Of a stretch of 64,000 nt of DNA, positions 14,026 to 61,905 are shown piece after piece. The DNA is from an uncultured Rhodobacter sp. GTDB lineage: Bacteria; Pseudomonadota; Alphaproteobacteria; Rhodobacterales; Rhodobacteraceae. Under the pieces are notes generated by a model. That model had not been told where the DNA came from and did not search any database. It worked only from the letters and a program-made list of their open reading frames with translations. A program made the translations under genes and the position numbers. How positions within the stretch are numbered: the stretch's first letter is position 1; every line of letters begins with the position of its first letter. The stretch is taken from NCBI GenBank assembly GCA_965201085.1, contig CBDAVS010000005.1:30967-94966 (forward strand), given 5' to 3'.

Positions 14026-17000
14026 TCACCAGCGAACGCCGAGCTCCAGCCTGAGACCGTGCCCGGTCTCCGCCCCGCCGCGTTCCATGAGCGTCGCCTC
14101 CGCCCTGAGCGAGAGTTCGGGCGCACCCGCCTCCGGGACAAGGCGCCAGCCGAGACTGTAGTCCCGGGACCCGCGCTCGAAGCGGGCTCCGACGCTCGGG
14201 CCAGCGGTGAGGCGCCCGCCGAAGGCGGGGAGACCGTACGCGGCCTGCGCCGACCAGCGGTCCGCGGCCTCGCCCGCCGCGCGCCCATGGAGCGGCTCCG
14301 CCGCGAACAGCGCGTCGAGCCCGCCCCCGGACCGTCCGCCCGTCTCCCGGCGCAGGCCGAGCGACAGGCCGCGCCCGCTCCCGGGATCCGCGTCATAGCC
14401 GAGCGCGGCGGAGAAGCCGCGCTCCCGGCGCCCGTCCGACCGGTGGGCGAGCAGGGTGCGTCCCGAGAGGTCGAGCGAGAGGCCGAGCCGGGGCGCCTCC
14501 CAGGCGACGCCGCCGCCCAGTTCGACCCCCAGGCCTCTTCCGGCGTCGCCGCCGTCGTGGCGTATCCCCGCCTCCGCTCTCGGGGTGAAGCCGCCGCCGT
14601 CCTCCAGCGGAACGCTCCAGCGCCCCTCGAGCCCCAGCCTGAGCCGCGTCACCTCGGATTCCGACGCCGCAAGGGTGCCGCCGGTCGCCACCACCCGCGC
14701 CGATCCGGTCCGCGACCACAGCGCGTCGGAGACGAGCGCGAGCGCCGGTCCGCGCGCCGCCTGCGGCGCCAGCAGGTCGCCCCGCAGCCCGGCGGCCATC
14801 ATGCTCCAGTCCAGGTCGGCCTTCATCGCGGTCCCGCCCTCCGGGGTGAGCGTCATCGTGCCGGTGCCGTGGCCCGCCGCGCCCCATAGCCCGAGCCGCT
14901 CCGACGCCCGCAGGGATGCGTAGGGAACGACGCCGCCGAGCGACGCCTCCATCGCGTATGACTTCGCGCCGTCGTAGCGGCCCTCTCCGTCGCTCCAGGC
15001 GAGGGCGACCCCCCCGAGCCAGTCCCCGCCGCCGTAATCGACGCCGAGCATCGCCGTCGCGACCGTGCCGTCCAGGTCCGCCGCGCCCGTCTCCGCGTCG
15101 AAGCCCGACCGCGCCCCCCGGGCCCACAGCGCCATGCTGGCGCCCGACCCGTCGCGCTCGCCGGTCAGGGCGAAGCCGCTGGCGGCCAGCGCCTCGACCA
15201 CCGTCATCGCGCGTCCGCCGGGACGCGACAGCGCCCCCTCCCGGTCGCCGTGAAGGTCGGCCCCGGAGAGGAGGATCCTCTCCCCGGACCGCGCCCCGCC
15301 GCGTCCGAGCGGAATTCCGGCCAGCATGCCCCGCGCGCCGTGCGCGCGGTCCGCCGACAGGCGCCGGGCCACCCCGTCGAGCGCATGCTCCGCCACCGTG
15401 CGGCCGAAATGCGCCAGCCACGCCCCCGGCAACGGGTCGCTGTTGAGGATCGTCCCCACCGCCTCATCATCTTCGAGGACCGCCCCGCGCGCATCCGACA
15501 GCACCACCCGGAACGTCTCGCCCGGGTCGTCGTGGGCGTCGTCCAGGGTCCTCACCCGAACCGTTCTGGACGTGTCGCCCGGCGCGAAGACCAGCTCGCC
15601 GTCGCCGGCCTCGTAGTCCTCGCCCGCCCGCGCCGTCCCCGGCTCGGTGCGCCAGCGCACCCGCGCCTCGCGCGTCGAGACCGAAGAGAGCGTGACCGCG
15701 AACTCCAGAACGTCCCCCTCGTCGCCCTCCGCGTCGCCGACCGACAGCGTCGGTGACGGCGTGCCGGTGGCGGTGACCCGCGTGCCCGCCTGCACGCCGT
15801 CATCCGCCGCGTTGCGCGTATCCACCCGCACCACATAGGTCCTGCCGTTTTCCAGACCGGTGATGTCGTAGGCGGTGCCGTCCACTTCGTTGACGGGCGA
15901 CAGCCTGTGGCCCGGCCCTTTCTTCCGCCAGCGCACGCTGTAGCCGTTCGGGGCGGAGGCCGCCGGCGTCCAGAGCAGCCACAGCCCGCCATCAGCCGGA
16001 ACGACCTGCAGGTTGGCCGCCTTCGTGGGGGTCGTGGTTATGGGACCGGCGTTCTGTTGGGACGGCTGCGTCCCGCCGGTGACCGCCGGGAAGGCAACGG
16101 TCGCCGTCGCCGTCTGCGTGCGCCCGTCCCTGGTTCCGGTGGCGGTCACCGTGACCGATGCGGGGCCTGAATTCGGAGCGGACGGCCGGCCGGTGATGGC
16201 GCCGGTGCCGGGGTCGATCTCCAGCCCCGACGGCAGTGTGCCCTCCGTCACCGCGTAGGTGATGCCCGAACCTTCCTCGAAGTGCAAGAGCTCCGGCGTC
16301 ATGGCCTCGATTTCCGTGCCCGCGGTCAACCCGGTCGGCACCGCCGTATAGCTCAGGCCCGCCACACGCACCTCGAACTGGGCGATGTCGTGCTTCCTGG
16401 GCAGGACATCATCCTCCACCGTCACGGTGAACATGGCGTCGCGGCCCGCCAGCAGCGGCGTCACCCGCACCGTGCCCGTGCCCGAAACGAGCGCCGTTCT
16501 TGCTGGCAGTCTCGGCGTGACGTCGAGCACTTCTGGATCGCGGATTGGCAGGGAGGCGTAGTAGAGGAGGTCATCGCCATCAGCGTCGCTCGCCGACACC
16601 GTCAGGTCAAACGCCACTCCCTGCGAGGCATAGGTGGGCTCGGTCGGGGTGGTTATCCCGGGCGCGTTCGGATTGGTTTCCGTGCCACCGTTCACCCTGC
16701 GGTTCGGATCGTCCGGCAGGGCCGGGTGGGACAGGTCCAGACCGGCATCGGTGTCAGACACGCTGATCCTGCCGCCATTGAGCCTGATGGCGTTGGCCGC
16801 GATGCTGATGCCGTTCGAATCCACGTCGCCCACCTTCACCTGATAGTTGGCGTATAAGGCGTTTTCCGAGGACCACGCCACGAATAACGGAACCTGCCTG
16901 ACCGCATCGGCCGCGTCGCCGATCTTCAGGCCGATGGCCGGTCTTCCGTCCGAGACATCCATCTCGACCGGCATTCTGAAATCAATCCTGATCTGGATCC

Positions 17001-19584
17001 TCTCGCCCACCTGATAGGTGCCGGTGCGGTCCAGCGGCGGGTTGAGGCTGTAGTGGATGGCGCTGATGTCGGGGCCGGACGGTGGACTGCCCGGCCGTTG
17101 GTTCCCCATCTCGGCCGCCGCGCCGTCCGAACGCCCGTCCGCGGTCGCCGTCACCGACACCGTGTAGGTAAGGGCCGGATTCAGCATCAGCCAGGTCGCG
17201 GTCGTGCCGGAGACCCGGTAGGCGGGACTCCGCACGGTGCCGCCCCTATGCAGGACATGGGCCCTGTACCCCGTCGCCCCGGGCACCGCCGTCCAGGTTG
17301 CCGTCAACCCGTTCACGATCGGCGTCACCGTTAAACCGGAGGGCATCGCCAGGTCCGTCACCGTTAAATCGGTCGGCACGCCCTGGACGGCGCCTGACCA
17401 GTCGCCGTCGGTGTGCGTCTTCGTGCTGGATGCCGCCTTCGAGCGCACGCGCACGTCGTAGGTCACGCCGTTGGCCAGGCCAGTGATGTCCGTGCCCGGC
17501 TCGGCGGATTCGATCGTGGTCACGCCCGACCCTTCCCAGCCCGTGACGGTCGATGCCTTCCACTGCAGCCCGTAGCCCGCCGCGGCCGTCACCGCGGCCC
17601 AGTTGGCCGTCAACCGCCCGTCGCCCACCTCCAGCGTCACTCTCGGCGGCGGCACCCTGAAGCGGAAGATGCGCGGGAAGTCGAGTGTCGCCGTCGCCGT
17701 CTGCGTGCGCCCGTCCCTGGTGCCGGTCACCGTCACCGTGACCGACACACCCGTGCTTCCGTCGATGTCGGTCGGCGTGTCCGGCCTGCCGGAGATGGCG
17801 CCGGTGCGGGCGTTGATCTCCAGCCCCGAGGGCAGTTCGCCCGTCGTCAGCGCATAGGTGAAGGTCGAACCGTCCCTGAAGTCGGCGGTCTCCGGCCTAA
17901 GCGTCTCGAACCTCGCGCCCGCGCGCAGAACCGTCGGCAGCGCCGGATAGGTGAGGCTCGGTGCGCCCGACGTCATGCCTTCCGTATCGACAAACGTGTC
18001 CTGGAGTTCTTCTTTTGACGAATCCAGGGTCAAGATACGCACAACGTAAGCGGTCTCGGGGTCAAGGCCGGTGATCTCTTGGGACGTTACCATCTCGGTG
18101 ACCGTCGCCCTGTCGCCATCGTCGAAGATGAACGCCGTCTTCTTGCGCCAGCGCACGCTGTAGCCGTTCGGCGCGTGGCTCGCCGCCGTCCAGCGCGCCG
18201 TCAGTTCCCCCTGCGCGGTCGCCGTGACCGACAGGCCCGTCACCGCCGTCGGGAACCTGCTCCCTGAATCCTTTGGCGTGGCGGTCGCCGCGTTGGAAGG
18301 CTCGCTCCCGCCGATTTCGTTCACGGCGCGCACCCGAAAGGTGTATGACACGTCGTTCGTCAGGCCCGTCACCACAAGGCTGGGCTTCAATGCGCCGGGG
18401 TCCAGGCCGATCGCCATCCAGTCACCGCCATCGGTGCTGTACTCGAACCGCACCAGGGTGTCCCCTTCCGGGTGCGGATCCCAGGACAGCTTCACCTCGC
18501 GGTTGCCCGCCGCCGCCGTCAGTCCCGTGGGTGCCGCCGGCTTCTTCTTCTTCTTCGGCGTCGCGACCGTCGTCGGCGAAGCCAGGCCCGGCCCGACGTC
18601 GTTCACCGCCCGCACCTTGAAGTAGTATGTCCTGCCGTTCGTCAGGCCCGTCACCGTGTAGCTGGTCTCCGTGCCGCCGACCGACGTCCAGGTCCGACCG
18701 TTGTCCGGGCTGACCTCATAATCCTTCGGCTTTCCCCCGTGCGGGGGCTTATGCCAGGTCAGCTCCACCTGACCGTCGCCCGCCTCAGCCACCGGTTGCC
18801 CCGGCCTGCCCGGCGCAATCGCCGGCGTCACGTTCCTGGACTCCGTCGGCACGCCCAGAATCCTTGAAGCGCCGTTCCCGGCCACGTCACCCACCGCCCG
18901 TAGCCTGAATGTGTAGGGCCGGTCGTTGGTCAGGCCGGTAATCTTGTGGTCGAGGTCATTCCTGCCGATGGTGGTCGCCTGCCAGCCGTCTCCCGGGTCA
19001 ACCTCGTAGCCCGTGATTCTGTCGTCCGCGGGCGGCGTCCAGCGCAGGATCACCACCGTGTCCCCCGCCTCGGCCACGAAGTCCGTCGGGGCCGGTATGG
19101 TCGTCGGCGTGCCCGCCACCGACGTGTGGCCGCCCCGTATTTCTTGTCCATTCCCGTCCAGCTTGTCCACCCGCACCACATAGGCCTTGTCGAGTTCAAG
19201 GCCAGTGATCGTGTAGCTCGTGCCGGTTTCCACCTCTCCGTTCGATAGGCTGGACCCCGCCTCCTTTACCCGCCAGCGCACCAGATAGCCCCCGGGCGAG
19301 TCCTCCGCCATCGTCCAGCTCACCTCCAGCGACCCGTTAACCGACTCGACAGTGAGATCCTCCAAGGGTTCGACCGGAGTTTGCGCCTGCGCGGCGGCGG
19401 GCAGGAGACCGGCGAGGAGCGTCGCGCAGGCGAGCAGCGCGGCCGCTAGCCGGATGAACCCCCTAGCGGCGGACTTCCGGGGGGGGGGGGGGGGGGTGAT
19501 AGAACCGAAACCGGATACGGAACTAGAGGGGCAACCGTCCCTTAAAACCGCCGTTGCCGCATTGACCGCGCCGCGTTCCGTCAT
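14026..19584 (-). CDS. Giant autotransporter adhesin-like protein (1852 aa) with FN3 repeats, Ig-like repeats, a Calx-beta domain and a C-terminal beta-barrel
   Basis: The signal peptide is RKSAARGFIRLAAALLACATLLAGLLPAAAQA|QT. Multiple FN3-like units recur (…V.W..P..G…Y.VR.R / YTFRVRAVN). Two He_PIG-like repeats are present (GLEINARTGAISGRP...VTGTRDGRTQTATAT and GLEIDPGTGAITGRP...ATGTRDGRTQTATAT). The Calx-beta domain reads LSVGDAEGDEGDVLEFAVTLS...GEDYEAGDGELVFAPGDTSRTVRVRTLDDAHDDPGETFRVVL. The C-terminal ~480 aa is Gly/Ala/Leu/Arg-rich with alternating beta-strand pattern and ends LELGVRW*, as autotransporter barrels do. Confidence 0.85.
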   Translation of the reverse strand: MTERGAVNAATAVLRDGCPSSSVSGFGSITPPPPPRKSAARGFIRLAAALLACATLLAGLLPAAAQAQTPVEPLEDLTVESVNGSLEVSWTMAEDSPGGYLVRWRVKEAGSSLSNGEVETGTSYTITGLELDKAYVVRVDKLDGNGQEIRGGHTSVAGTPTTIPAPTDFVAEAGDTVVILRWTPPADDRITGYEVDPGDGWQATTIGRNDLDHKITGLTNDRPYTFRLRAVGDVAGNGASRILGVPTESRNVTPAIAPGRPGQPVAEAGDGQVELTWHKPPHGGKPKDYEVSPDNGRTWTSVGGTETSYTVTGLTNGRTYYFKVRAVNDVGPGLASPTTVATPKKKKKPAAPTGLTAAAGNREVKLSWDPHPEGDTLVRFEYSTDGGDWMAIGLDPGALKPSLVVTGLTNDVSYTFRVRAVNEIGGSEPSNAATATPKDSGSRFPTAVTGLSVTATAQGELTARWTAASHAPNGYSVRWRKKTAFIFDDGDRATVTEMVTSQEITGLDPETAYVVRILTLDSSKEELQDTFVDTEGMTSGAPSLTYPALPTVLRAGARFETLRPETADFRDGSTFTYALTTGELPSGLEINARTGAISGRPDTPTDIDGSTGVSVTVTVTGTRDGRTQTATATLDFPRIFRFRVPPPRVTLEVGDGRLTANWAAVTAAAGYGLQWKASTVTGWEGSGVTTIESAEPGTDITGLANGVTYDVRVRSKAASSTKTHTDGDWSGAVQGVPTDLTVTDLAMPSGLTVTPIVNGLTATWTAVPGATGYRAHVLHRGGTVRSPAYRVSGTTATWLMLNPALTYTVSVTATADGRSDGAAAEMGNQRPGSPPSGPDISAIHYSLNPPLDRTGTYQVGERIQIRIDFRMPVEMDVSDGRPAIGLKIGDAADAVRQVPLFVAWSSENALYANYQVKVGDVDSNGISIAANAIRLNGGRISVSDTDAGLDLSHPALPDDPNRRVNGGTETNPNAPGITTPTEPTYASQGVAFDLTVSASDADGDDLLYYASLPIRDPEVLDVTPRLPARTALVSGTGTVRVTPLLAGRDAMFTVTVEDDVLPRKHDIAQFEVRVAGLSYTAVPTGLTAGTEIEAMTPELLHFEEGSGITYAVTEGTLPSGLEIDPGTGAITGRPSAPNSGPASVTVTATGTRDGRTQTATATVAFPAVTGGTQPSQQNAGPITTTPTKAANLQVVPADGGLWLLWTPAASAPNGYSVRWRKKGPGHRLSPVNEVDGTAYDITGLENGRTYVVRVDTRNAADDGVQAGTRVTATGTPSPTLSVGDAEGDEGDVLEFAVTLSSVSTREARVRWRTEPGTARAGEDYEAGDGELVFAPGDTSRTVRVRTLDDAHDDPGETFRVVLSDARGAVLEDDEAVGTILNSDPLPGAWLAHFGRTVAEHALDGVARRLSADRAHGARGMLAGIPLGRGGARSGERILLSGADLHGDREGALSRPGGRAMTVVEALAASGFALTGERDGSGASMALWARGARSGFDAETGAADLDGTVATAMLGVDYGGGDWLGGVALAWSDGEGRYDGAKSYAMEASLGGVVPYASLRASERLGLWGAAGHGTGTMTLTPEGGTAMKADLDWSMMAAGLRGDLLAPQAARGPALALVSDALWSRTGSARVVATGGTLAASESEVTRLRLGLEGRWSVPLEDGGGFTPRAEAGIRHDGGDAGRGLGVELGGGVAWEAPRLGLSLDLSGRTLLAHRSDGRRERGFSAALGYDADPGSGRGLSLGLRRETGGRSGGGLDALFAAEPLHGRAAGEAADRWSAQAAYGLPAFGGRLTAGPSVGARFERGSRDYSLGWRLVPEAGAPELSLRAEATLMERGGAETGHGLRLELGVRW
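19479..19496. repeat. Homopolymer of 18 G (C18 on the coding strand) inside the 5' end of the autotransporter ORF
   Basis: I counted it directly: gg, then 10 g, then 6 g at 19479-19496. It encodes T-PPPPP-R between Met1 and the signal peptide. Confidence 0.95.
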
Positions 19585-20158
19585 CCCAGCCCCGCTTCAT
19601 GCTCCAAGGTTCATCACATTACCGGCGTTCCACCGGATCATCAAGCGGTTTCCTGAAAAAGCGCTCGGCAGGCTGCGGCGGAAGATGGCCCCGTCCGCGG
19701 TGTCCGGAAAGCGATCCATTGATAAAAAAGGGGAAAATCCCCGCCACGCCGCTCCCGGGACGCGCCTCCCGCCCTGCGGACATCCGGCCCAGGCGGCCGC
19801 GCGGAACGGGGCCTTCTTCCGCCGCGGCGACCTGGGCCGCGCGCAGTCGTCGAGAGGTGATTCGGAAGCGCATGGGGACGCGCGCCGAAGGTCCGGTCCC
19901 AGGCGCCTCGGGCATCATGCCGGCGGGTTCGCCGGACGCCGCGGCGGCGGATAGACGATGGCCACACGATCCGGCATTTCGGAGAGCGTCATGCGAGAGG
20001 ACGTTATGAACCTGACCGTCGGATGCGACGGGCGGGCGCGGCGCAGTCTGGCGCTGGCGCGACTGTGGGTCCATTCCGGTCGGTCCGCCGTAAGAAGATT
20101 TTCGGATCGGGTTTCAGCATACTGCAGGGCTCAGTTAGAAGAGGTCGGCGCTGGCGAG

Positions 20159-32939: not shown

Positions 32940-34333
32940 GAGTTATGCCCGAAAGTTGGTGACGGCCCCTGAGGGGCGGCATATCATGGCGGTGAAACAA
33001 ACGCCGTCAGTTCCCGAAGGGAAAGGGATATGCCACAAGACCGAATCTACAGTGATCCAGTCCGGGCGTCCATCGGGGTTTTCGCCTGATCCGCTCACGG
33101 AGGTGATCAGGTCCGGGACCCGCGGGCTTCTGGCCTCGGCGGTCCAGGCCGAGGTCGCGGACTTCCTGGCCCGTCACGAACATCTCGCTGACGAAGGGGG
33201 GGGCGCAGGCGCGTGGTGCGCCACGGGACCCTGCCGGAGCGGGAGGTGATGACGGGGACCGGCCGGGTGCCCGTTGAGGTTCCCCGCGTCCGCGACCGAA
33301 AGGCGGGCGTGGCCCGTGAGGACCGGATCAGGCTGCGTTCCTCGACCGTGCCGCCCTATCTCCGGAAACCGAGGCCTGTCGGGGATCCCCTGCCCCGGCC
33401 CTATCCCAGGGGCATCTCGACGGGCGACTTCGGCGAGGCGCCCGCGGCTTTGCCGGGGCCGGACGCGGAGGGGCTGTCCCCCTCCACGGTGACGGGGCTG
33501 AAGGCCACATGGAAGGACGAATGCGAGACCTGGCGAAAAAGGGATCTCAGCGGCCGGCGCTTCGTCCACGTCTGGGCGGACGGGGGCTGCTTCACGCCCC
33601 GGCTGGACAGCGACCGCCGGTGCATGCGGGTGGTGATCGGGGCCGATGAGTATGGTGAGAAGGACGTTCTGGCCGTCATGGACGGGTTTCGCGGGAACGC
33701 CGACAGCTGGCGCGACCTTCTCCGCGACCTCAGGGACCGTGGCCTGGAGGAGCCGCCGGAGCTCGCCGTCGGCGACGGCGCGCCCGGATTCCGGACAGCT
33801 CTGCGGGACGTGTGCCCGAAGACGCGGGAGCGGCGCTGCTGGGTGCATAGGACCTCCAACGTCACCGGGGCCCTGCCCAGGCCGCCCAGGGAACGGGCGA
33901 AGTCCGATCTTCATGAAATATGGATGGCGGAGACGAAGAGGGAGGCTGAGGCGGCCTTCGGCCGCTTCGTGAAAAACCACCGCGTGAAATACGAACGGGC
34001 GGTGGCGAAGCCTGGGAAGGATCGCGACGGACCTCTCGCCTTCCACCACTTCCCCGCGGAGCACTGCAGGCACATAAGGACCACGAACCCCGTCGAGAGC
34101 GTGTTCGCCACGGTCCGTAACCGGACCCGCAGGACCAGGGGCTGCCTGAGCGGAAAGACCGCGCTTTCGATGGTCTACCGCCTCATGATGTCCGCGAAGG
34201 GCAACTGGCGCAGGCTCCCGGCGCCGAACAGGTTTCCGGAGGTCTTCCGGGGGGGTGTGTTCAGCGACGGGATCATACAGGAGAGCGCTGCCGCCTGATC
34301 AGACGGACCGTCACCAACTTTCGAGCATAACTC
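32940..34333 (+). mobile_element. IS256-family element, copy A (1394 bp), with 26-bp inverted repeats and an intact 8-bp target duplication GAATGATG
   Basis: The left inverted repeat is gagttatgcccgaaagttggtgacgg. The reverse complement of the right inverted repeat is gagttatgctcgaaagttggtgacgg. The duplication occurs at 32932-32939 and 34334-34341. Confidence 0.9.
32956..34298 (+). CDS. IS256-family transposase in two frames; a -1 shift is needed at the G8 run 33196-33203
   Basis: The N-terminal frame reads MAVKQTPS...VADFLARHEHLADEGGG. The main frame reads (G)RRRVVRHGTLPEREVMTGTGRVPVEVPRVRDR...LYxxGISTGDF-like PRGISTGDF...WADGGCF...GDGAPGF...RCWVHRTSNV...RTTNPVESVFATVRNRTRRTRG. Confidence 0.85.
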
Positions 34334-43925: not shown

Positions 43926-46900
43926 TCACTCTTCAAGCGCGGGCGGCAACGCGCCCAGGATTTCCGAGGTCCGGACGCTCAGGTACACAATCCGCTTTAT
44001 CACCGAAACGAGGTCCTGCGGTCTGCCGAACCATGCGTTCGGGTCATTCACGATACCGCTGTTCCTGTCGGTGGTGATTTTGTAGCGGTCGATGAACCAG
44101 CCGAGCGGCGTCCTGCCGTTGACCTCGTAACCGTGCGCCTCGGGCGGTATCCCCGCGAGACTGACGCTGTCGTTGACGATCAGGACGGACCTGTCCGGGT
44201 TCGCCCCTTTACCCGCGAATTTCATGGCCTTCGCGGTCAGGCGGCAATCATGCGGCTGGGGATCTCCCGGGCCGGAGAAGCGAAGTTCCAGCGGATACTC
44301 CTCGCATCTTTCGTATCCGGTGTGCAGTTCGGCCAGTTTGAGGCCCGCTTCGGCGAAGGTCGTGAAGTCCCGTGCCAGCGGGACCGCCGGAAGCTCCCTG
44401 GCGAGCGCGTTCGGGAACGCCCGCCTGAAATCCGTGGCGTGGAGAACGCCGTAGACGTAGTGGAAGATGTCATCCTTCGTGATGGCGGGGTTCCCGTAAC
44501 GCTCCCGGAAACGCGCCAGCGCGCCGTCGGTGATGTTGTCGACCTTCCTGAGCGGTGGATCCAGACCGGGAAGGCCGGCCCGGTGATCGGGTCGTTCGTA
44601 CCGATGGCGGGGGAAGCACTGGCCGAACGACAGCAAATGGAGGTCCGGTATGCGATCCACCATGAGCGCGGAGAACGGCTTGGTCGAGCCGATCCCGGTA
44701 ACGCAGATCGCAAGGTTCGGGGTTTCGGGATAAGGAAAGATCTGATGCTGCTGGTATCTACGGGCGATCAAACGGTATTCAACGAAGCAATTCATTGGGA
44801 CGAATGGACGGTAGCAGACAGGTCGAACATTCTCGTTACTGAATGGAATCTCCATTTTTCGAATCAGGTTGGTGCATAGACCTTCGTCCCAGCGAAGATG
44901 TCGGCTGTAACGCTCCGTGAGCCGCTCCAGTCCCTGCGGTGCTCCAAGTTCCTTAAGTTCATTCAGGGCGTCAGTGTAGTTCCTGATCGCCCTTCTGGCG
45001 TTGGTCGCGCAGGCATCCCGTGAGTAGTTGTACAGATAGGCGTCACGACCGGTCTTCATGCCGTTGCTGAACAGCTGGAACACCGTAACGCCCGCATCTG
45101 TCCTCTTCGCCTTAGCCTCCTTGGAGCCGAGGGGCAGCAACCGTCCGTAGCCATCCTCCCGCTTCCCGATCCAGCCGTGATGGGCGTCCGGCTCGATCAT
45201 TCGCCAATCCGCGATCCCGGTGATCGACTGCGCCCCGGCGACGATCTCTAGCTTCCGCTCCCTCGTGAGACAGTCTCCGATGTCGTGATAGAGGATGCGA
45301 CACCCGATGTGTTCCGCCTTCGGGTTCTTGACCAGGAAGAAGACGCTGACCGGAGCGCGGGAACCGCTGCCGAACACTTTGCCGCCCTCCCGCCTGGAAA
45401 GCTCTCCGGAAGTGCGTTGGTTCCCCCTCAGATTGACCACATGGACCGAGGTGAACTCCTCCGCCAGACAGGCGCGGATGCCTGAATCTGCGTTCCCGTC
45501 CAGCCAGGAGCCGTTGGTGACGAAGCCGATCACGCCGCTGTCTCCGATGCGGTCGGAGGCCCAGCGGATTGCCATCTTGTAGCTGTCGTACAGAGAGTTC
45601 CTGTTGGTGCTCGACGAACGCTCCGCATAGGTCTCTGTGACGCGGCTCCTCAGCTTCGGATAGTCCGCTTCCGACTGGCCCACATTCCAGGGGGGATTGC
45701 CGACGATCACCCTTATGTCGGCGTTCATCTGCGCGGTGCGGCGCTCCGAATTCTCCTTCAGCAGATCGGCGATCATATCCTCCCGGTCACGGTCCATCCG
45801 GAAGGTGTCGGTAAGGCAGATCCTCTCGAACGCCCTGTTCTCTCCGGTCACACCCGCATAGGCCTCCTGGATGTTCACCGAGGCGATGTAGTAGGCGAGC
45901 AGCACGATCTCGTTGGCGTGGATCTCACCGCCGAATTTACGCCGCAGCGCGTCCGCGTCGATGATCCCGGACTGGACAAGGCGCGCGATGAAGGTCCCCG
46001 TTCCGGTGAACGGATCGAGGATGTGAACCCCTTCGTCGGCCATCGATCCGCTGAACTCCGTCCCCATGATGTGCTCCACCGAACGCAGGATGAAATCCAC
46101 GATCTCCACCGGCGTGTAGACGATGCCCAACGCCTTGCTGGTCTCCGGGAAGGCGTTGCGGAAGAACTTGTCGTAAAGCTCGGAGATGATCCTCTGTCGC
46201 GCTTTGGTGTCACCCGCCGCCGCCTCGACGCGCCGTTCGACGGAGCGGTAGAACTCTTCCAGCCCTTCGGTCTCGGCTTTCCTCGCTGGTTCTATGACCT
46301 TGAGGAAATCGTCGAGTGCCTGACCTACAGGGCTCTGGGTGAGAAAACCGTCGCCCGAACCATCCCCGCGGAACAACGCGTTGAAGACCGGCAGCGTGAC
46401 CGCATGCTGGGCCAGCATCTCGATCGCCTGTTCCTTCGTGATGGACGGGTTGATGTCGTCGCGCAGCTCCTCCAGGAAGTCGTCGAACATGCCGGCGGCC
46501 GTCTCGACATCACCGTCGCGTCCGTCCCGCTTGGGGGTGACCATCGCCGTGATGCGGACGATATGCCTGCGGGCGATGTCGGCCACGTCACCGGCCCAGT
46601 CCTCCCAGTATTTTCTGTTGCCGCATCTCTCGACCAGCCTAGCCTGGATCGCGGCGGTCAGCTGAAGGTCCCAGGCGTCATGCGTAACCGGTGGCGTTTC
46701 GGGATCGGGATCGGGTGCCGGCGGATCGCCGCGCTCCCCGAGACCGGTGAACTGCGAAACGGTGATGATCGAGAGCTTTCCGATCACCCCGGTCTCCTCG
46801 AAGAGGTTGATCTGCGCCTCGAACCCGGGGTCGTGCGAGCGGATGGCGTTGACCATCTGCCAGACCTTTTTCCACTGGTCACTGTCCTCGAACAGCCGGT

Positions 46901-48713
46901 CCACGTCCTTCCCCTCCGGGATCACGACCGGAAGGATCACGTAGCCGACCTGTTTCCCCTCCGCCTTTCGCATGACCCGCCCGACAGCCTGGACGACCTC
47001 GATCTGGCTCTTCCTCGGCTGCATGAAGAGAAGCGCGTCGAGGGCCGGGACGTCGACGCCTTCGGCGAGGCAGCGCGCGTTCGTCACCACGCGGCATTCC
47101 CGCGCCCCCGGCCGTTCCAGCCAGTCGAGGATCTCCGATCTGCGCTCGGCGTTGTAGGTGCCGTCCACGTGCCTTGCGGGAGTGGCGAGGGTGTCGCCGC
47201 TTTCCGAACCGTCGAACAGCCGCTCCACCTGCTCCGACGCCCTGATCGAGGAGCAGAACGCGATGGCGCTTCTCATCGGGCGGTGGTCGGATTCCGGGAA
47301 GCTCTCCGGACTGGCCTTGGCGAGCGCCTGCCGGCAGCCCAGCATGAGACCGGCGTCCTCCAGCTTCAGCTGCGCACGGTCGGCGTCGCCGAAGCGGCCC
47401 AGCTCCTTCGCCGCGACGTCCTCCGGCACGGTGAGGATCACCACACGGTAATCCGAGAGCAGCCCTGCCTCAAGGGCCCGGTGGAAGTCGAAATCGACCA
47501 GCGTCTCGCCGAACAGGTCGGTGTCGTCCATGGAACCGAGGGTGACGGACCGCCGTCCGGCCTTCCTCTTCGCGGCCTCGCTCCATATCTTCGGCGTCGC
47601 GGTCATGTAGAGCCGCCGGTCGGTCTGGATGAGAGCGTCGTCATGGATCATCGTGAAGGCCGAATCCGCGCCGTCCCCGGCGATGCCCGCCGTCCGGTGC
47701 GCCTCGTCGCAGACGGCCAGGTCGAAACGCGGAAGCCCGTGATCCCCCTGCGCGGCGGCGATGGCCGCGCTCGACTGGTAGGTGGCGAAGACGACGGTCA
47801 TCCCGCCGTACGGTTTCGACGCGGCCTCCGCGAGGCGTCCGGCGTCGGTTGTGGCCGGCACCGCGAGATCCGAAGGCGGCAGGTCGATCCGGTCGTCCTG
47901 GCGGAGCCTGCGGCCCGTCCGGGTGTCCGAGCAGACAGCGAACAGCCGCATGTCGCAGGTCCTGTCGCGGACCCAGGCGCTGATCGTCTGCGACATCAGG
48001 GCGAGGGACGGGACAAGGTAGAGGACACGGCCACCTTTGCCCGCGAGGCTCTCGGCCGCCCGCAGCGAGGTCAGGGTCTTGCCGGTGCCGCAGGCCATCA
48101 GCGCCTTGCCGCGTGATCCGGGATCCGCGAGACCCTCGATTATGTTCGCCACCGCCTCGGTCTGGTGCGGGCGCAGCCGCGGAGGCTCCGGCGGCGCCGT
48201 GGTCTCGCCGGTGTCGAACCAGACGCTCCAGTCGATGTGGGATTCCAGCAGACCGTGCCGTCCCAGGCGCCTGATCGGCGGGTCGACCTCGTCAAGGCGC
48301 CGTTCGGCGTTGGCGGACCATTCACGCCCGGAGGTCTCGATCAGGATGCGGGCGCCGAATTCAGGCCGGTTCGATTTCGCCACGAAGCTGTCGATCTCGT
48401 GCTGCGCTATCATGCCGCCCCTACGGCGGAACTTGCACTGGATGGCGGCGAAGCGACCGCTACCGTCATTCAGGTCGGCGACGAGATCGATGCCTGTGTC
48501 GTTCTCCTTCAGGCCCCGCTCCCGCGCCCATGTGGCGTAGGGGCGGGGGTTCGATATCTGGTTCGTCTCGACCGGATCGTTCGAGAGGTGGACCACGCAG
48601 AGCCGCTCGAAGGCGTCGCCCACCTCCCGGCTCCGGTCGCCGGAAACCCCGGCCCATTCATCCAGCTTCGCTTTCAGCGCCTCCGCGCCGGGTTTCGCCT
48701 GTGAGGATTCCAT
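43926..48713 (-). CDS. Type ISP restriction-modification enzyme (Mrr-like nuclease, SF2 helicase-like ATPase, N6-adenine methyltransferase and target-recognition domain), 1595 aa
   Basis: The probable start is ATG 48713 (MESSQAKPG...). The nuclease motif is TGIDLVADLNDGSGRFAAIQCKF. The helicase motifs are I (MACGTGKT), II (VCDEAHRT), III (MTATP) and VI (QAVGRVMR). The MTase motifs are I (ILDPFTGTGTF) and IV (VIVGNPPWN). The C-terminal part has ...VCYRPFVPMNCFVEYRLIARR... as in LlaGI/LlaBIII-type enzymes. Confidence 0.85.
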   Translation of the reverse strand: MESSQAKPGAEALKAKLDEWAGVSGDRSREVGDAFERLCVVHLSNDPVETNQISNPRPYATWARERGLKENDTGIDLVADLNDGSGRFAAIQCKFRRRGGMIAQHEIDSFVAKSNRPEFGARILIETSGREWSANAERRLDEVDPPIRRLGRHGLLESHIDWSVWFDTGETTAPPEPPRLRPHQTEAVANIIEGLADPGSRGKALMACGTGKTLTSLRAAESLAGKGGRVLYLVPSLALMSQTISAWVRDRTCDMRLFAVCSDTRTGRRLRQDDRIDLPPSDLAVPATTDAGRLAEAASKPYGGMTVVFATYQSSAAIAAAQGDHGLPRFDLAVCDEAHRTAGIAGDGADSAFTMIHDDALIQTDRRLYMTATPKIWSEAAKRKAGRRSVTLGSMDDTDLFGETLVDFDFHRALEAGLLSDYRVVILTVPEDVAAKELGRFGDADRAQLKLEDAGLMLGCRQALAKASPESFPESDHRPMRSAIAFCSSIRASEQVERLFDGSESGDTLATPARHVDGTYNAERRSEILDWLERPGARECRVVTNARCLAEGVDVPALDALLFMQPRKSQIEVVQAVGRVMRKAEGKQVGYVILPVVIPEGKDVDRLFEDSDQWKKVWQMVNAIRSHDPGFEAQINLFEETGVIGKLSIITVSQFTGLGERGDPPAPDPDPETPPVTHDAWDLQLTAAIQARLVERCGNRKYWEDWAGDVADIARRHIVRITAMVTPKRDGRDGDVETAAGMFDDFLEELRDDINPSITKEQAIEMLAQHAVTLPVFNALFRGDGSGDGFLTQSPVGQALDDFLKVIEPARKAETEGLEEFYRSVERRVEAAAGDTKARQRIISELYDKFFRNAFPETSKALGIVYTPVEIVDFILRSVEHIMGTEFSGSMADEGVHILDPFTGTGTFIARLVQSGIIDADALRRKFGGEIHANEIVLLAYYIASVNIQEAYAGVTGENRAFERICLTDTFRMDRDREDMIADLLKENSERRTAQMNADIRVIVGNPPWNVGQSEADYPKLRSRVTETYAERSSSTNRNSLYDSYKMAIRWASDRIGDSGVIGFVTNGSWLDGNADSGIRACLAEEFTSVHVVNLRGNQRTSGELSRREGGKVFGSGSRAPVSVFFLVKNPKAEHIGCRILYHDIGDCLTRERKLEIVAGAQSITGIADWRMIEPDAHHGWIGKREDGYGRLLPLGSKEAKAKRTDAGVTVFQLFSNGMKTGRDAYLYNYSRDACATNARRAIRNYTDALNELKELGAPQGLERLTERYSRHLRWDEGLCTNLIRKMEIPFSNENVRPVCYRPFVPMNCFVEYRLIARRYQQHQIFPYPETPNLAICVTGIGSTKPFSALMVDRIPDLHLLSFGQCFPRHRYERPDHRAGLPGLDPPLRKVDNITDGALARFRERYGNPAITKDDIFHYVYGVLHATDFRRAFPNALARELPAVPLARDFTTFAEAGLKLAELHTGYERCEEYPLELRFSGPGDPQPHDCRLTAKAMKFAGKGANPDRSVLIVNDSVSLAGIPPEAHGYEVNGRTPLGWFIDRYKITTDRNSGIVNDPNAWFGRPQDLVSVIKRIVYLSVRTSEILGALPPALEE

Positions 48714-49039
48714 GCCGCGCTTCCCGATATCCGTTCCGCCGGACGACTGAGTAACGTCTGCCGGCGCATCCCGCAATGATCGGGTGCCGCCGGCGGCGCG
48801 GGCGGTATTCGCGGGGCACAGGCGGTCCGCGGTATACGCTCCCGCCGCGCCCGTCGACCATGACACACGCTGACTGCGCCGAGCCGGCGGGACGGCCTCT
48901 CGGTTCACCGTATGTTCCGGCCTACCGCGCCCTTTTCCACCCCTCGGCCCCGGTCACATCCGCTGGCGGCGACACATTGCGCGGCGGTGGGCTTTCCGCT
49001 ATGGATGCATGTATCCCGCTGACGCCAGGGAGGTGATCG

Positions 49040-59781: not shown

Positions 59782-61905
59782 ATGCGCCGAAAAGATGGCC
59801 GCGATTTATTTGGTTCAGACCGCACTGATCCACCTTCGGTCCACCGACGGTCCATCCGGGCGATTTCCCTGGCTATTGGCACGGCGCTGTTCTGTTCGCC
59901 AGCCGTCTCACAGGGGATACTGGGAGGCGACGTCTCCACTTCGGCGAACTTCACGCTGACCCACGGCCTGACGTTCCGCGCAGAAAACCGTGACCCGAGC
60001 TTGAACAGCATCAACGGCGACAACGGCGACCTCAACTACGAGAAGCGGAGGCTGGTCAGCAACACGTCCAACCTTACGGCGGAATTCGAGATCAACAGCG
60101 GCGATTTCGGGCTGTTCGCCCGCCTGAACGGGTTCATGGACTTCGAGACCCAGAACGGATCGCGTGAGCGGACTCCACTCTCTGAAGACGCCTTGAATGT
60201 CGCGGGGCGGGATTTCCGGATCCTTGACCTGTACGCGTCGGCGTTCTTCGAGCCGGGGGGGGTACCGCTTGACATCAGGGTCGGCAACCAGGTCCTGAAC
60301 TGGGGCGAGAGCACGTTCATCCCGAACGGTATAAACGTGATCAACCCGATCGACGTGAGCCGAATCCGGACGCCAGGCGCGGAACTGCGTGATGCACTGG
60401 TTCCGGTTCCGATGGCGTTTGCCGCAGCCGAACTGGTCCCGAACCTCTCGATGGAGGGTTTCTACCAGTTCGGATGGGAGAAAACGGAGGTCGATCCGGT
60501 CGGGACGTATTTCTCCACGACGGACTACGTCGGGGCGGGTGGAACGCATGCTTTCTTGACTGATTTTATTGACGGGCTGAACAGTGCTATAAACACTGAA
60601 AACACCGCGCGGGGACTCCGCCTACCGACCGCGAGCGATCAGGGGCTTAATTTTGACGATCCTTTCCTTATCAGCCCTACAGACCACCCCATGGCAACTT
60701 CTTTTCGCGATATTATTAACGAGAAAGTCAATCAAGCCTATACCCAATTCGTAGCTAACAAACCGATGGTCAATGTGTCCTGTACCGACTTGACGGGTTT
60801 GGGTCAGGACTGTGCACGTACCGCCGCGGATCCAAACTTTCTAGCAATTGGGCGCCAGAGTGACCGTGAACCCGCTGATGATGGTCAGTATGGCATAGCA
60901 TTGCGTTATCTTTCCCCGGCGCTGAATGACACTGAATTCGGGTTCTATTTTGTCAATGCTCACAGCAGGCTGCCACTCGTCAGCGGACGTATCGGTGATG
61001 CCAAGTACCTCGCGCATAGTATAGAAATTGAAAAAGCTGTAAATGAGTTGACCGCTCCTCTGAGTCAATTCGCTGGTCCTCTTGCGCTTGACCGATTTGC
61101 CAAGGCGTCGAGCTATTTTGTTGAGTATCCCGAGGATCTGAAGACATACGGCCTTAGCTTCAACACCCTGCTCGGAGCCAGTGGATGGGCACTGCAGGGA
61201 GAATACTCCCTCCATCCGGATCTGCCTTTGCAAAGGACAGAGAGGGCCCTGTTTCAGCAAGCGTTGAGGGCCGCCGCTTGCGAACTCGATGTTATACGAA
61301 GTAGCGACTCCGGTATTAAGGCTGAGTGTGATGGTTTGGCTAAATCTACAAGTAGAGATCCGTCAGCTGAATATCAGCCCGGTCTCATAGTTGGCGATGA
61401 AGCTCTGAGTGGACAGTTCGGTCTCGGAGGTTATCTACAAGGCTACCGAAAACGCGACGTGAGCCAGGCGCAGATCACGGCAACACAGGTGTTCGGGCCC
61501 GCGCTCGGATCGGACGCACTGGGCTTCATCGCGGAGGCAGCGCTCATGAGGGTCCACGGAATGCCCGACCGTGCCAACGATCCGCTGGAGACGGGCGGCT
61601 CCTCGAAAGACGGCAGCGCCGAAGCGACCTCCTGGGGCTACAGGGGTGCGCTGTGGCTTGACTACAGCAACGCCGTCGGCGCGGCGTCCCTCTCGCCTTA
61701 CATCCAGTTCCAGCACGACGTGGACGGATCGAGCCCCGCGCCGTTCGGACCCTTCGTCGAAGGCCGGAAAGCCATAACGCTCGGTGTCGGGGCGAGCTAT
61801 CTCGAACGCTGGAGCGCGAACGTCAGCTACACGGCGCATTCCGGCTCCAACAACCCGCTGGCCGGCAGGGACTTCATGTCGATGTCATTCAGCTATTCCT
61901 TCTAA
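59782..61905 (+). CDS. DUF1302-family outer-membrane protein
   Basis: From ATG 59782 it reads MRRKDGRDLF...AISLAIGTALFCSPAVSQG (signal). It then has ...TLTHGLTFRAENRDP...GDLNYEKRRLVSNTSNLTAEFEI...LRVGNQVLNWGESTFIPNGINVINPIDVSRIRTPGAELRDALVP... and ends ...DFMSMSFSYSF*, a beta-barrel terminal Phe. Confidence 0.8.
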   Translation: MRRKDGRDLFGSDRTDPPSVHRRSIRAISLAIGTALFCSPAVSQGILGGDVSTSANFTLTHGLTFRAENRDPSLNSINGDNGDLNYEKRRLVSNTSNLTAEFEINSGDFGLFARLNGFMDFETQNGSRERTPLSEDALNVAGRDFRILDLYASAFFEPGGVPLDIRVGNQVLNWGESTFIPNGINVINPIDVSRIRTPGAELRDALVPVPMAFAAAELVPNLSMEGFYQFGWEKTEVDPVGTYFSTTDYVGAGGTHAFLTDFIDGLNSAINTENTARGLRLPTASDQGLNFDDPFLISPTDHPMATSFRDIINEKVNQAYTQFVANKPMVNVSCTDLTGLGQDCARTAADPNFLAIGRQSDREPADDGQYGIALRYLSPALNDTEFGFYFVNAHSRLPLVSGRIGDAKYLAHSIEIEKAVNELTAPLSQFAGPLALDRFAKASSYFVEYPEDLKTYGLSFNTLLGASGWALQGEYSLHPDLPLQRTERALFQQALRAAACELDVIRSSDSGIKAECDGLAKSTSRDPSAEYQPGLIVGDEALSGQFGLGGYLQGYRKRDVSQAQITATQVFGPALGSDALGFIAEAALMRVHGMPDRANDPLETGGSSKDGSAEATSWGYRGALWLDYSNAVGAASLSPYIQFQHDVDGSSPAPFGPFVEGRKAITLGVGASYLERWSANVSYTAHSGSNNPLAGRDFMSMSFSYSF

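Follow-up and report, generated by a model that had tools for sequence, protein, structure and literature searches.

Does a run of 18 cytosines near the start of a giant surface-protein gene decide, by its length, whether the protein is made? The question arises in a 64,000-nucleotide (nt) stretch of DNA from an uncultured Rhodobacter sp. (GenBank assembly GCA_965201085.1, contig CBDAVS010000005.1, positions 30,967 to 94,966), hereafter the window, whose minus strand encodes an 1852-amino-acid (aa) protein with a C18 homopolymer between its start codon and its signal peptide. An earlier note on this DNA had singled out the tract as a candidate for slipped-strand phase variation. Judging from the anatomy of the locus and the sequences of its relatives, we consider a frame-based slipped-strand ON/OFF translational switch at C18 the probable reading (about 0.65), and we hold with greater confidence that the tract is real and unstable. 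The allele as assembled is ON.

The tract, its reading frame and the protein behind it

Direct reading of the sequence agreed with the earlier note that 18 consecutive G occupy positions 19479-19496 of the plus strand, that is, C18 on the coding strand, and the translation of the open reading frame (ORF) agreed with its reading of the region as ATC ACC (CCC)x5 CGG AAG (I-T-PPPPP-R-K). The tract stands out from its surroundings. All other homopolymers counted in the 64-kb window, among them an in-frame G8 at 60255-60262, are 8 nt or shorter, and a G/C run of at least 18 nt is expected at about 1e-4 under an independent and identically distributed (i.i.d.) model at the window's 63.4% guanine-plus-cytosine (GC) content. 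The run-length histogram of the window decays faster than this model. The features of the gene are as follows.

14026 to 19584, minus strand: gene of the 1852-aa surface protein, with six fn3, two He_PIG and one Calx-beta domain and a C-terminal barrel (ORF and Pfam)
19582 to 19584, minus strand: ATG, the sole canonical in-frame start, 4 codons 3' of an in-frame TGA
19497 to 19581, minus strand: leader, codons 2 to 29-30 (TERGAVNAATAVLRDGCPSSSVSGFGSIT), of a base composition that is not coding-type
19479 to 19496, minus strand: C18 tract, made of the last two C of ACC, five CCC (Pro31-35) and the first C of CGG
19384 to 19479, minus strand: signal peptide RKSAARGFIR-LAAALLACATLLAGLL-PAAAQA, with predicted cleavage before QT (inspection by eye)
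19463 to 19465, minus strand: TAG met after 6 codons with C19 (..PPPPPPEVRR, then stop; frame 1 translation)
19446 to 19448, minus strand: TAG met after 11 codons with C17 (..PPPPPGSPPLGGSSG, then stop; frame 0 translation)
14029 to 15426, minus strand: translocator-like C-terminal region, with a helix at about residues 1387-1410 and then a beta-barrel at about 1470-1852 that ends in ...GVRW (AlphaFold model)

An in-frame TGA at 19599-19597 precedes ATG 19584 by 4 codons with neither GTG nor TTG between them, so that this ATG is the sole canonical in-frame start, and the tract begins 29 codons past it. By inspection, the signal peptide has a charged n-region, a 16-residue hydrophobic core and an AxA motif; it follows a 35-residue extension, and its first codon holds the last C of the tract. 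There is no in-frame ATG, GTG or TTG in the interval from the tract to the signal peptide, and the nearest start-type codon 3' of the tract is a TTG 38 codons on, past the predicted cleavage site between AQA and QT. The earlier note was thus right that the tract lies downstream of the only in-frame ATG and adjoins the signal peptide with no start codon between them, and also that a length change that is not a multiple of three would uncouple the passenger and barrel from initiation, as C17 and C19 would run into a TAG after 11 and 6 codons, respectively. Contingency loci carry a hypermutable repeat, which for a homopolymer means about 7-9 nt or more, inside the ORF and 3' of its start; C18 has such a length and also such a position, provided that ATG 19584 is the start in use. 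A twin-arginine translocation (Tat) signal was considered for the protein and rejected, as the peptide has one R only and no RR-x-F-L motif.

Both the leader and the tract have an unusual composition for coding sequence. The GC contents of the 29-codon leader at the first, second and third codon positions are 0.52, 0.66 and 0.59, compared with a third-position value of 0.88 in the body of the ORF; to judge by this composition, the amino-acid sequence of the leader is evidently free of normal coding constraint. As for the tract, the ORF encodes proline with 77 CCG and 35 CCC codons, and CCC accounts for 30 (27%) of the proline codons outside the tract; the probability of five CCC in a row is about 0.001. 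Moreover, the homopolymer extends into both flanking codons, and PPP occurs only once elsewhere in the ORF (CCGCCGCCG). By these measures, the tract is a DNA-level feature and not a selected polyproline.

The earlier note had called the protein an autotransporter, a label that was not borne out by domain profiles and was favored by structural comparisons. The C-terminal 500 aa gave no match to the autotransporter beta-domain (Pfam PF03797 and NCBIfam) at E values up to 10. However, the last 470 residues, which end in ...RW, are conserved among many proteins, and an AlphaFold model of this region made with nine homologues (pLDDT, the predicted local distance difference test, 61.6) predicts a helix followed by a large beta-barrel. 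The best matches of the model in the PDB were autotransporter beta-domains (BrkA with an E value of 1e-7, then EstA, EspP, Hbp, NalP and AIDA-I), with target template-modeling (TM) scores of 0.6-0.7 over about 250-290 of the 470 residues. Measured against the classical type Va autotransporters, the protein has the N-terminal Sec signal peptide (by inspection), about 18 predicted barrel strands (assigned with DSSP) instead of 12 and a passenger composed of fn3, He_PIG and Calx-beta domains instead of a beta-helix. Such a passenger is atypical for type Va but not disqualifying (compare EstA). On the strength of the model, 'autotransporter-like' is a reasonable label, and the predicted barrel may represent an undescribed translocator subtype.

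Tract length and phase among relatives

The closest relatives of the protein (88% and 58% identical) were compared through their called N-termini. Polyproline precedes the signal peptide in the 88% identical P0001 (...VSVL-PPPPP-REARRRGFIRLAA), and similar runs are present in P0005 (...GFGSS-PPPPPP-AR), P0003 (MQCLGLT-PPPPPPP-RTHRQ) and P0065, with PPPP immediately 5' of the signal peptide. The peptide that precedes the tract in P0001 (RRFSGTVAPLVPYLVSVL) matches the other frame of the window's leader (RQRRF-stop-GTVAPLVPYPVSVLS), and the corresponding peptide of P0005 (DGCPARSFPGFGSS) matches the window's own frame (DGCPSSSVSGFGSIT). Therefore, two paralogues from the same contig read one leader DNA differently, each joined to its signal peptide via the tract. 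Differences in length were also found. Within one 90%-identity cluster, P0003 carries seven prolines and P0121 and P0122, from other contigs, carry six, the first 120 aa being otherwise identical. At the level of sequence, this is direct evidence that tract length changes between near-identical genomes. A protein search with the first 170 aa of the window protein recovered a single match (the fragment P0124), and a scan of Joint Genome Institute (JGI) metagenomes with the N-terminal 365 aa recovered distant fn3 proteins only (27-38% identity) and no same-species tract lengths.

Some of the relatives have atypical N-termini. In P0005, the tract is present and the signal peptide is missing its hydrophobic core (RRRGFIRLAAAQSPAPT); P0004 begins just past the cleavage site and P0124 begins within the hydrophobic core. 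All three could possibly be OFF-phase or degraded alleles.

To compare more distant members at the DNA level, we used 79 loci (1.44 Mb) from species-representative genomes, retrieved with an alignment of the C-terminal domain. All are metagenome-assembled genomes (MAGs), labeled as Alpha- and Gammaproteobacteria (including Arenicellales and Ca. Poriferihabitaceae), Binatia, Poribacteria, Nitrospirales, Spirochaetia, Acidobacteria and others. MAGs of Ca. Poriferihabitaceae and Ca. Porisulfidus are reported to come from sponge metagenomes (Wellcome Open Research genome notes, PMC12859430, PMC12988363), and a sponge origin is presumed from such taxon labels for the records used here. Homopolymers of at least 9 nt number seven in the 1.44 Mb, all of them C on the coding strand of the family gene (the plus strand of the locus), and five of the seven sit at the 5' edge of a family gene (C9 in L001, C15 in L007, C16 in L072 and C19 in both L066 and L074).

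The phase of these tracts varies. In L007, an upstream ATG is in frame across the tract. L066, L072 and L074 are three paralogues in one Pseudomonadales MAG that share a conserved leader (MSRTLISML.SSKI.GK...) preceded by TACAAT, a -10-like element. Between this leader and the signal peptide the frame is off by one base, there is no start 3' of the tract, and the leader indels among the paralogues are of 30 and 15 nt. L001 has an AAGGA Shine-Dalgarno sequence and an ATG leader that is likewise one base out of frame, with no later start. Its tandem paralogue L002 is free of the tract (CTACCTACCACTTCTCC) and in frame. Between the two there is a difference of -4 nt at the tract, so that C10 would put L001 in frame. 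Further, L047, the orthologue of P0003, retains a decayed tract (CTCACCCCTCCCTGCCCC) and has its only starts (an ATG and a GTG) 5' of the remnant; therefore, translation reads through the tract region. The comparison of tract lengths proposed in the earlier note thus returned a range of C9 to C19 across loci and P7 versus P6 in near-identical proteins. Its slipped-strand candidate gained comparative support from the recurrence of the tract, the differences in length and phase, the out-of-frame alleles and the non-triplet repeats described below.

A further long homopolymer lies on the minus strand of L045 (360-480), in an unrelated secreted-protein gene with the arrangement GGAGG, ATG, 16 codons, G15 and the hydrophobic core IAALLVAALAWPAAAQQ. 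The contig end truncates this gene, whose frame is shifted by one base; with G16 it would be ON.

A probable translational switch and its rivals

Two features upstream of the gene bear on where its transcription starts.

19730 to 19742, minus strand: terminator-like hairpin with a T-run, the end of the upstream transcription unit (sequence scan)
19616 to 19644, minus strand: weak candidate for a sigma-70-like promoter, TTGATG-17 nt-TAATGT (seen by eye, below the threshold of the scanner)

Because the hairpin at 19742-19730 closes the upstream unit, the promoter of the gene falls within about 19725-19585, the approximately 140 nt 5' of the ATG, and hence upstream of the tract. A consensus promoter scan of 19300-20100 returned no site at threshold. 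The candidate at 19644-19616 sits about 30 nt 5' of ATG 19584 and resembles the TTGTTA-17-TAATGT found 5' of the ATG in the orthologous L047. A promoter-spacer switch of the Bordetella fim or Neisseria porA type was rejected: the tract has no flanking hexamers and no later start, and it cannot be a promoter spacer because its last base already belongs to the signal peptide.

Building on the anatomy of the locus, the DNA-level nature of the tract and the recurrence of the tract with varying length and phase in relatives, all of them observed, we infer that switching within a population would proceed as follows. Transcription would begin upstream of ATG 19584, and translation from this codon would pass through a 29-codon leader without conserved sequence. 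The ribosome would then cross the tract as five prolines and enter the signal peptide (ON). Slippage by a number of nucleotides that is not a multiple of 3 would bring a TAG into frame 6 or 11 codons on, leaving the signal peptide, passenger and barrel unmade (OFF), and a second slip would bring the frame back (ON). The likely benefit would be the stochastic variation of a surface adhesin where exposure to hosts or phages occurs.

Several points weigh against this switch. The window protein is the single member of its 90% cluster, and the length variation is that of homologues only. Long homopolymers in MAGs are of uncertain exact length, and the window itself provides a reason for caution: an IS256/Mutator transposase (ORF 33213-34298, plus strand) is frameshifted at the G8 run at 33196-33203, which splits off the approximately 65 N-terminal residues, encoded in another frame starting at about 33000, and G7 would fuse the two parts. 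The gene may be a pseudogene or the run a miscall, which affects the trust to be placed in the tract lengths of the assembly. Many of the comparison loci are from sponge metagenome assemblies and, should these be long-read, the C16-C19 OFF calls could be one-base consensus errors. Additionally, the composition of the leader is not coding-type and the G-rich Shine-Dalgarno sequence in front of ATG 19584 is weak, which is why the use of this ATG is something we infer. The sequence AGGGGG-TTC-ATC 3' of the tract could yield M-R-LAAALL... by a non-canonical start, and slippage of RNA polymerase on C18 could blur the ON and OFF states.

The last two points can be taken further, into an explanation free of frame logic in which a non-canonical start at ATC 19455-19453, or RNA polymerase slippage on C18, makes the tract a rheostat and not a binary switch. 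Initiation at the ATC of AGGGGG TTC ATC CGG would give an ideal 24-aa signal peptide, the non-coding composition of the leader would be accounted for, and the 5- and 8-nt repeats of the sister class described below, which adjoin TTGACA...TATAAT elements and in several cases have a later in-frame ATG, may be elements of the 5' untranslated region (5'UTR). Yet ATC makes a very poor start codon, with the Shine-Dalgarno-like element at a distance of just 3 nt, nothing comparable to this downstream start or its Shine-Dalgarno sequence is present in the relatives from Pseudomonadales or in L047, promoter hexamers adjoin none of the poly-C tracts, and the upstream ATG is kept in frame in both the tract-free L002 and L047 with its decayed tract. 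We regard this explanation as unlikely. Slightly less likely still is the view that the tract is a slippage-prone leftover of no adaptive value, in a family undergoing decay or relaxed selection whose differences in frame would be ordinary pseudogenization. Such decay would be in line with the several relatives that are out of frame, with the missing hydrophobic core of P0005 and the starts of P0004 and P0124 after or inside the signal peptide, and with L069, which appears disrupted further downstream. However, ORFs of 1,600-3,700 codons stay open behind out-of-frame tracts, and pure C15-C19 tracts are kept in several lineages while long homopolymers are otherwise almost absent. The presence of different repeat units at the same position across the family also argues for recurrent selection of mutability.

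Two other explanations are very improbable. An assembly or sequencing artefact is suggested by the error-prone nature of long G/C homopolymers in all chemistries and by the G8 run at the transposase frameshift. Nonetheless, the tract lies in the interior of a 97-kb contig, coding sequence continues coherently to either side of it without loss of frame, and the homologous position bears a tract in independent assemblies of homologues; a miscall of its length, and hence of the ON or OFF state, is quite possible, yet the feature would remain. A polyproline spacer or a pause site dependent on elongation factor P between the N-terminal extension and the signal peptide, with its length selected in the protein, would explain the four to seven prolines at the same position in several homologues. 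This functional polyproline was rejected on codon usage and frame-independence, because the tract is all CCC in a gene that favors CCG and spills into the flanking codons, paralogues read the leader in different frames, out-of-frame alleles are found, and tract-free relatives function with TTSP or PPCP in that position.

The translational switch that we favor has precedents, and the claim of novelty in the earlier note holds in part: novelty lies in the lineage, in the protein family and in the pattern that runs through it, but the mechanism is known in Neisseria (PMC3723659) and in the alphaproteobacterium Bartonella (PMC11466379). In NalP and MspA of Neisseria meningitidis, the ON or OFF state depends on the length of a poly-C tract inside the gene, which differs among strains (6-15 C), and immunoblots confirm the in-frame lengths (PMC3723659). 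As in these genes, the poly-C of the window lies in the ORF of a type V-like surface or secreted protein. It differs from them in its length (C18), in its position, with a short leader on one side and the signal peptide on the other, in the fn3/He_PIG/Calx-beta composition of a passenger that is not a protease, in its uncultured marine Rhodobacterales-like host (the ParE encoded in the window is 82-86% identical to Rhodobacterales/Paracoccaceae proteins) and in that its switching is a prediction. In Bartonella krasnovii, badE has an A9 tract right after the start codon and a G9 tract, and ON/OFF variation occurs among isolates and is under selection in hosts (PMC11466379). The window tract is likewise an alphaproteobacterial mononucleotide repeat at the extreme 5' end of an ORF, here that of an autotransporter-like adhesin. 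BadE is, however, a trimeric (type Vc) protein of a low-GC pathogen with tracts of 9, whereas the window protein is predicted to be of the monomeric barrel type and has C18 in DNA of 63% GC.

Other repeats resemble the tract in position or in length. The (CTCTT)n repeats of Neisseria opa and the (CT)n repeats of Helicobacter pylori outer-membrane protein genes lie inside the signal peptide of small outer-membrane proteins. They share with the window tract a location in or beside the signal-sequence coding region, where a change of frame uncouples the start from the exported protein, but their units are penta- and dinucleotides within the signal peptide itself. Bordetella fim and Neisseria porA and opc have poly-C or poly-G next to the -35 and -10 hexamers or in the spacer that separates these, where they alter transcription. 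These tracts are of similar length and also govern surface proteins, but the window tract has no flanking hexamers and no start codon after it.

Elsewhere in the window, the minus strand carries at 43926-48908 the gene of an intact 1660-aa Type ISP restriction-modification enzyme with Mrr-like nuclease, helicase, coupler, methylase and specificity domains.

Repeat cassettes across the family

Where poly-C is missing, most family genes have a different repeat a short way 5' of the signal peptide, and the length of its unit is not divisible by 3. About 40 of the 57 complete family genes have a 1-, 5-, 7- or 8-nt repeat at the 5' end, and nearly all of the 52 repeat arrays in the 1.44 Mb are at the 5' end of a family gene. 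The units include GCCGGATC and GCCGGGTC (translated as AGSPDRRI and AGSPGRRV), CCGAG (PSRAE), CCAAG, AGCCAAG and others, in 4.5-68 copies. Copy number differs despite identical upstream 70 nt (13.6 in L014 and 29.6 in L032; 15.4 in L061 and 11.4 in L065; 13.8 in L033 and 23 in L037). Tandem Repeats Finder detected no such array in the whole window, and Rfam gave no match around the tract or around a repeat cassette. The repeats and associated elements were found at these loci.

5' repeats (first group): L003, L005, L006, L008, L010, L012-L014, L017, L018, L021-L023, L027, L029, L031-L033, L035
5' repeats (second group): L037, L040, L043, L045, L046, L048-L050, L052, L053, L057, L059, L061, L065, L068, L069, L071, L075
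TTGACA...TATAAT elements, examples: L005 (6078-6112), L014 (5338-5374), L022 (4901-4935), L057 (5359-5387)
12-codon ORF class, examples: L048 (5398-5600), L014 (5482-5700), L052 (5476-5700)
Shared segment of about 190 nt between repeat and signal peptide: L012 (Poribacteria), L014 (Alphaproteobacteria), L048 (Thalassobaculaceae), L052 and, on the minus strand, L028 (Binatia)

Adjoining the repeat are perfect TTGACA and TATAAT hexamers with a spacer of 17-27 nt, mostly 23 (also 17, 19, 20 and 27), which often holds a palindrome (GAGGGGAnTCCCCTC) and is preceded by an A/T-rich stretch upstream of the element. The arrangement resembles a promoter whose spacer is non-canonical, and the repeat would then lie at the 5' end of the transcript. 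Some repeat loci have an in-frame ATG 3' of the repeat. The commonest class instead has, 3' of the repeat and out of frame, a conserved 12-codon ORF (ATG GTG GCG CCG CCT AAG ... TGA, encoding MVAPPKALRLPA), and no in-frame ATG, GTG or TTG before the signal peptide; even so, members of this class keep unbroken ORFs of about 2,000 codons. The ATG of the 12-codon ORF opens a normal signal peptide instead in L035. Among the loci with 8-nt repeats, the upstream ATG leaders are spread evenly over the three frames with respect to the main ORF (12 : 14 : 13), which fits coding and 5'UTR models alike, and codon-position composition is weakly coding-like in the leader and not coding-like in the linker from repeat to signal peptide. 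CTG initiation at 'N-L-R-R-G' was rejected for this class, several loci having CCG instead. The distribution of the cassettes shows recurrent recruitment of hypermutable DNA to this position; alone it does not prove the frame model for the window.

The segment of about 190 nt between repeat and signal peptide (LPASSWWRRLRRSASRPESS...) is, together with the repeat unit, near-identical in MAGs that are assigned to different phyla. This similarity suggests horizontal spread of the 5' cassette or, alternatively, binning errors on short contigs. The layout of promoter plus repeat also occurs with a tetranucleotide unit at L054 (15443-15495), where (GCCA)13 lies right after TTGACA...ACAATA and 5' of a non-family gene.

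Among known systems, Haemophilus influenzae hmw1A and hmw2A have 7-bp repeats between promoter and start, and Moraxella uspA2 has AGAT repeats in the 5'UTR. With repeats after TATAAT and 5' of large adhesin genes, the family's 5-, 7- and 8-nt class finds its best analogue here, which the intragenic window tract does not. Unlike hmw, many loci of the class have no in-frame start 3' of the repeat, which the hmw model leaves unexplained. To our knowledge, phase variation by simple sequence repeats is known almost only from cultured vertebrate pathogens and commensals, and our literature search found no paper in which sponge symbionts are connected with phase variation or with contingency loci. 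Compared with the window tract, the repeat cassettes seen throughout the family and across phyla are the more novel lead. We give somewhat less than even odds to the joint claim that the window tract is one case of a community-wide system in which giant adhesins, with many paralogues per genome in sponge-associated MAGs, carry interchangeable cross-phylum 5' cassettes (poly-C or repeats abutting TTGACA...TATAAT), so that symbionts would vary their surface by horizontally spread contingency loci; the start-less subclass with the 12-codon ORF may couple repeat length to translation by an undescribed route.

If the switch operates as proposed, an uncultured marine alphaproteobacterium would diversify its surface stochastically via a giant fn3/Calx-beta protein whose homologues are multi-copy in sponge symbionts, with a bearing on how symbionts escape sponge phagocytosis and phage attack. 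Giant MAG genes that appear 'frameshifted' or start-less beside repeats would then be switch states and not errors or pseudogenes, and the tract would offer a marker of within-host population heterogeneity that can be tested by polymerase chain reaction.

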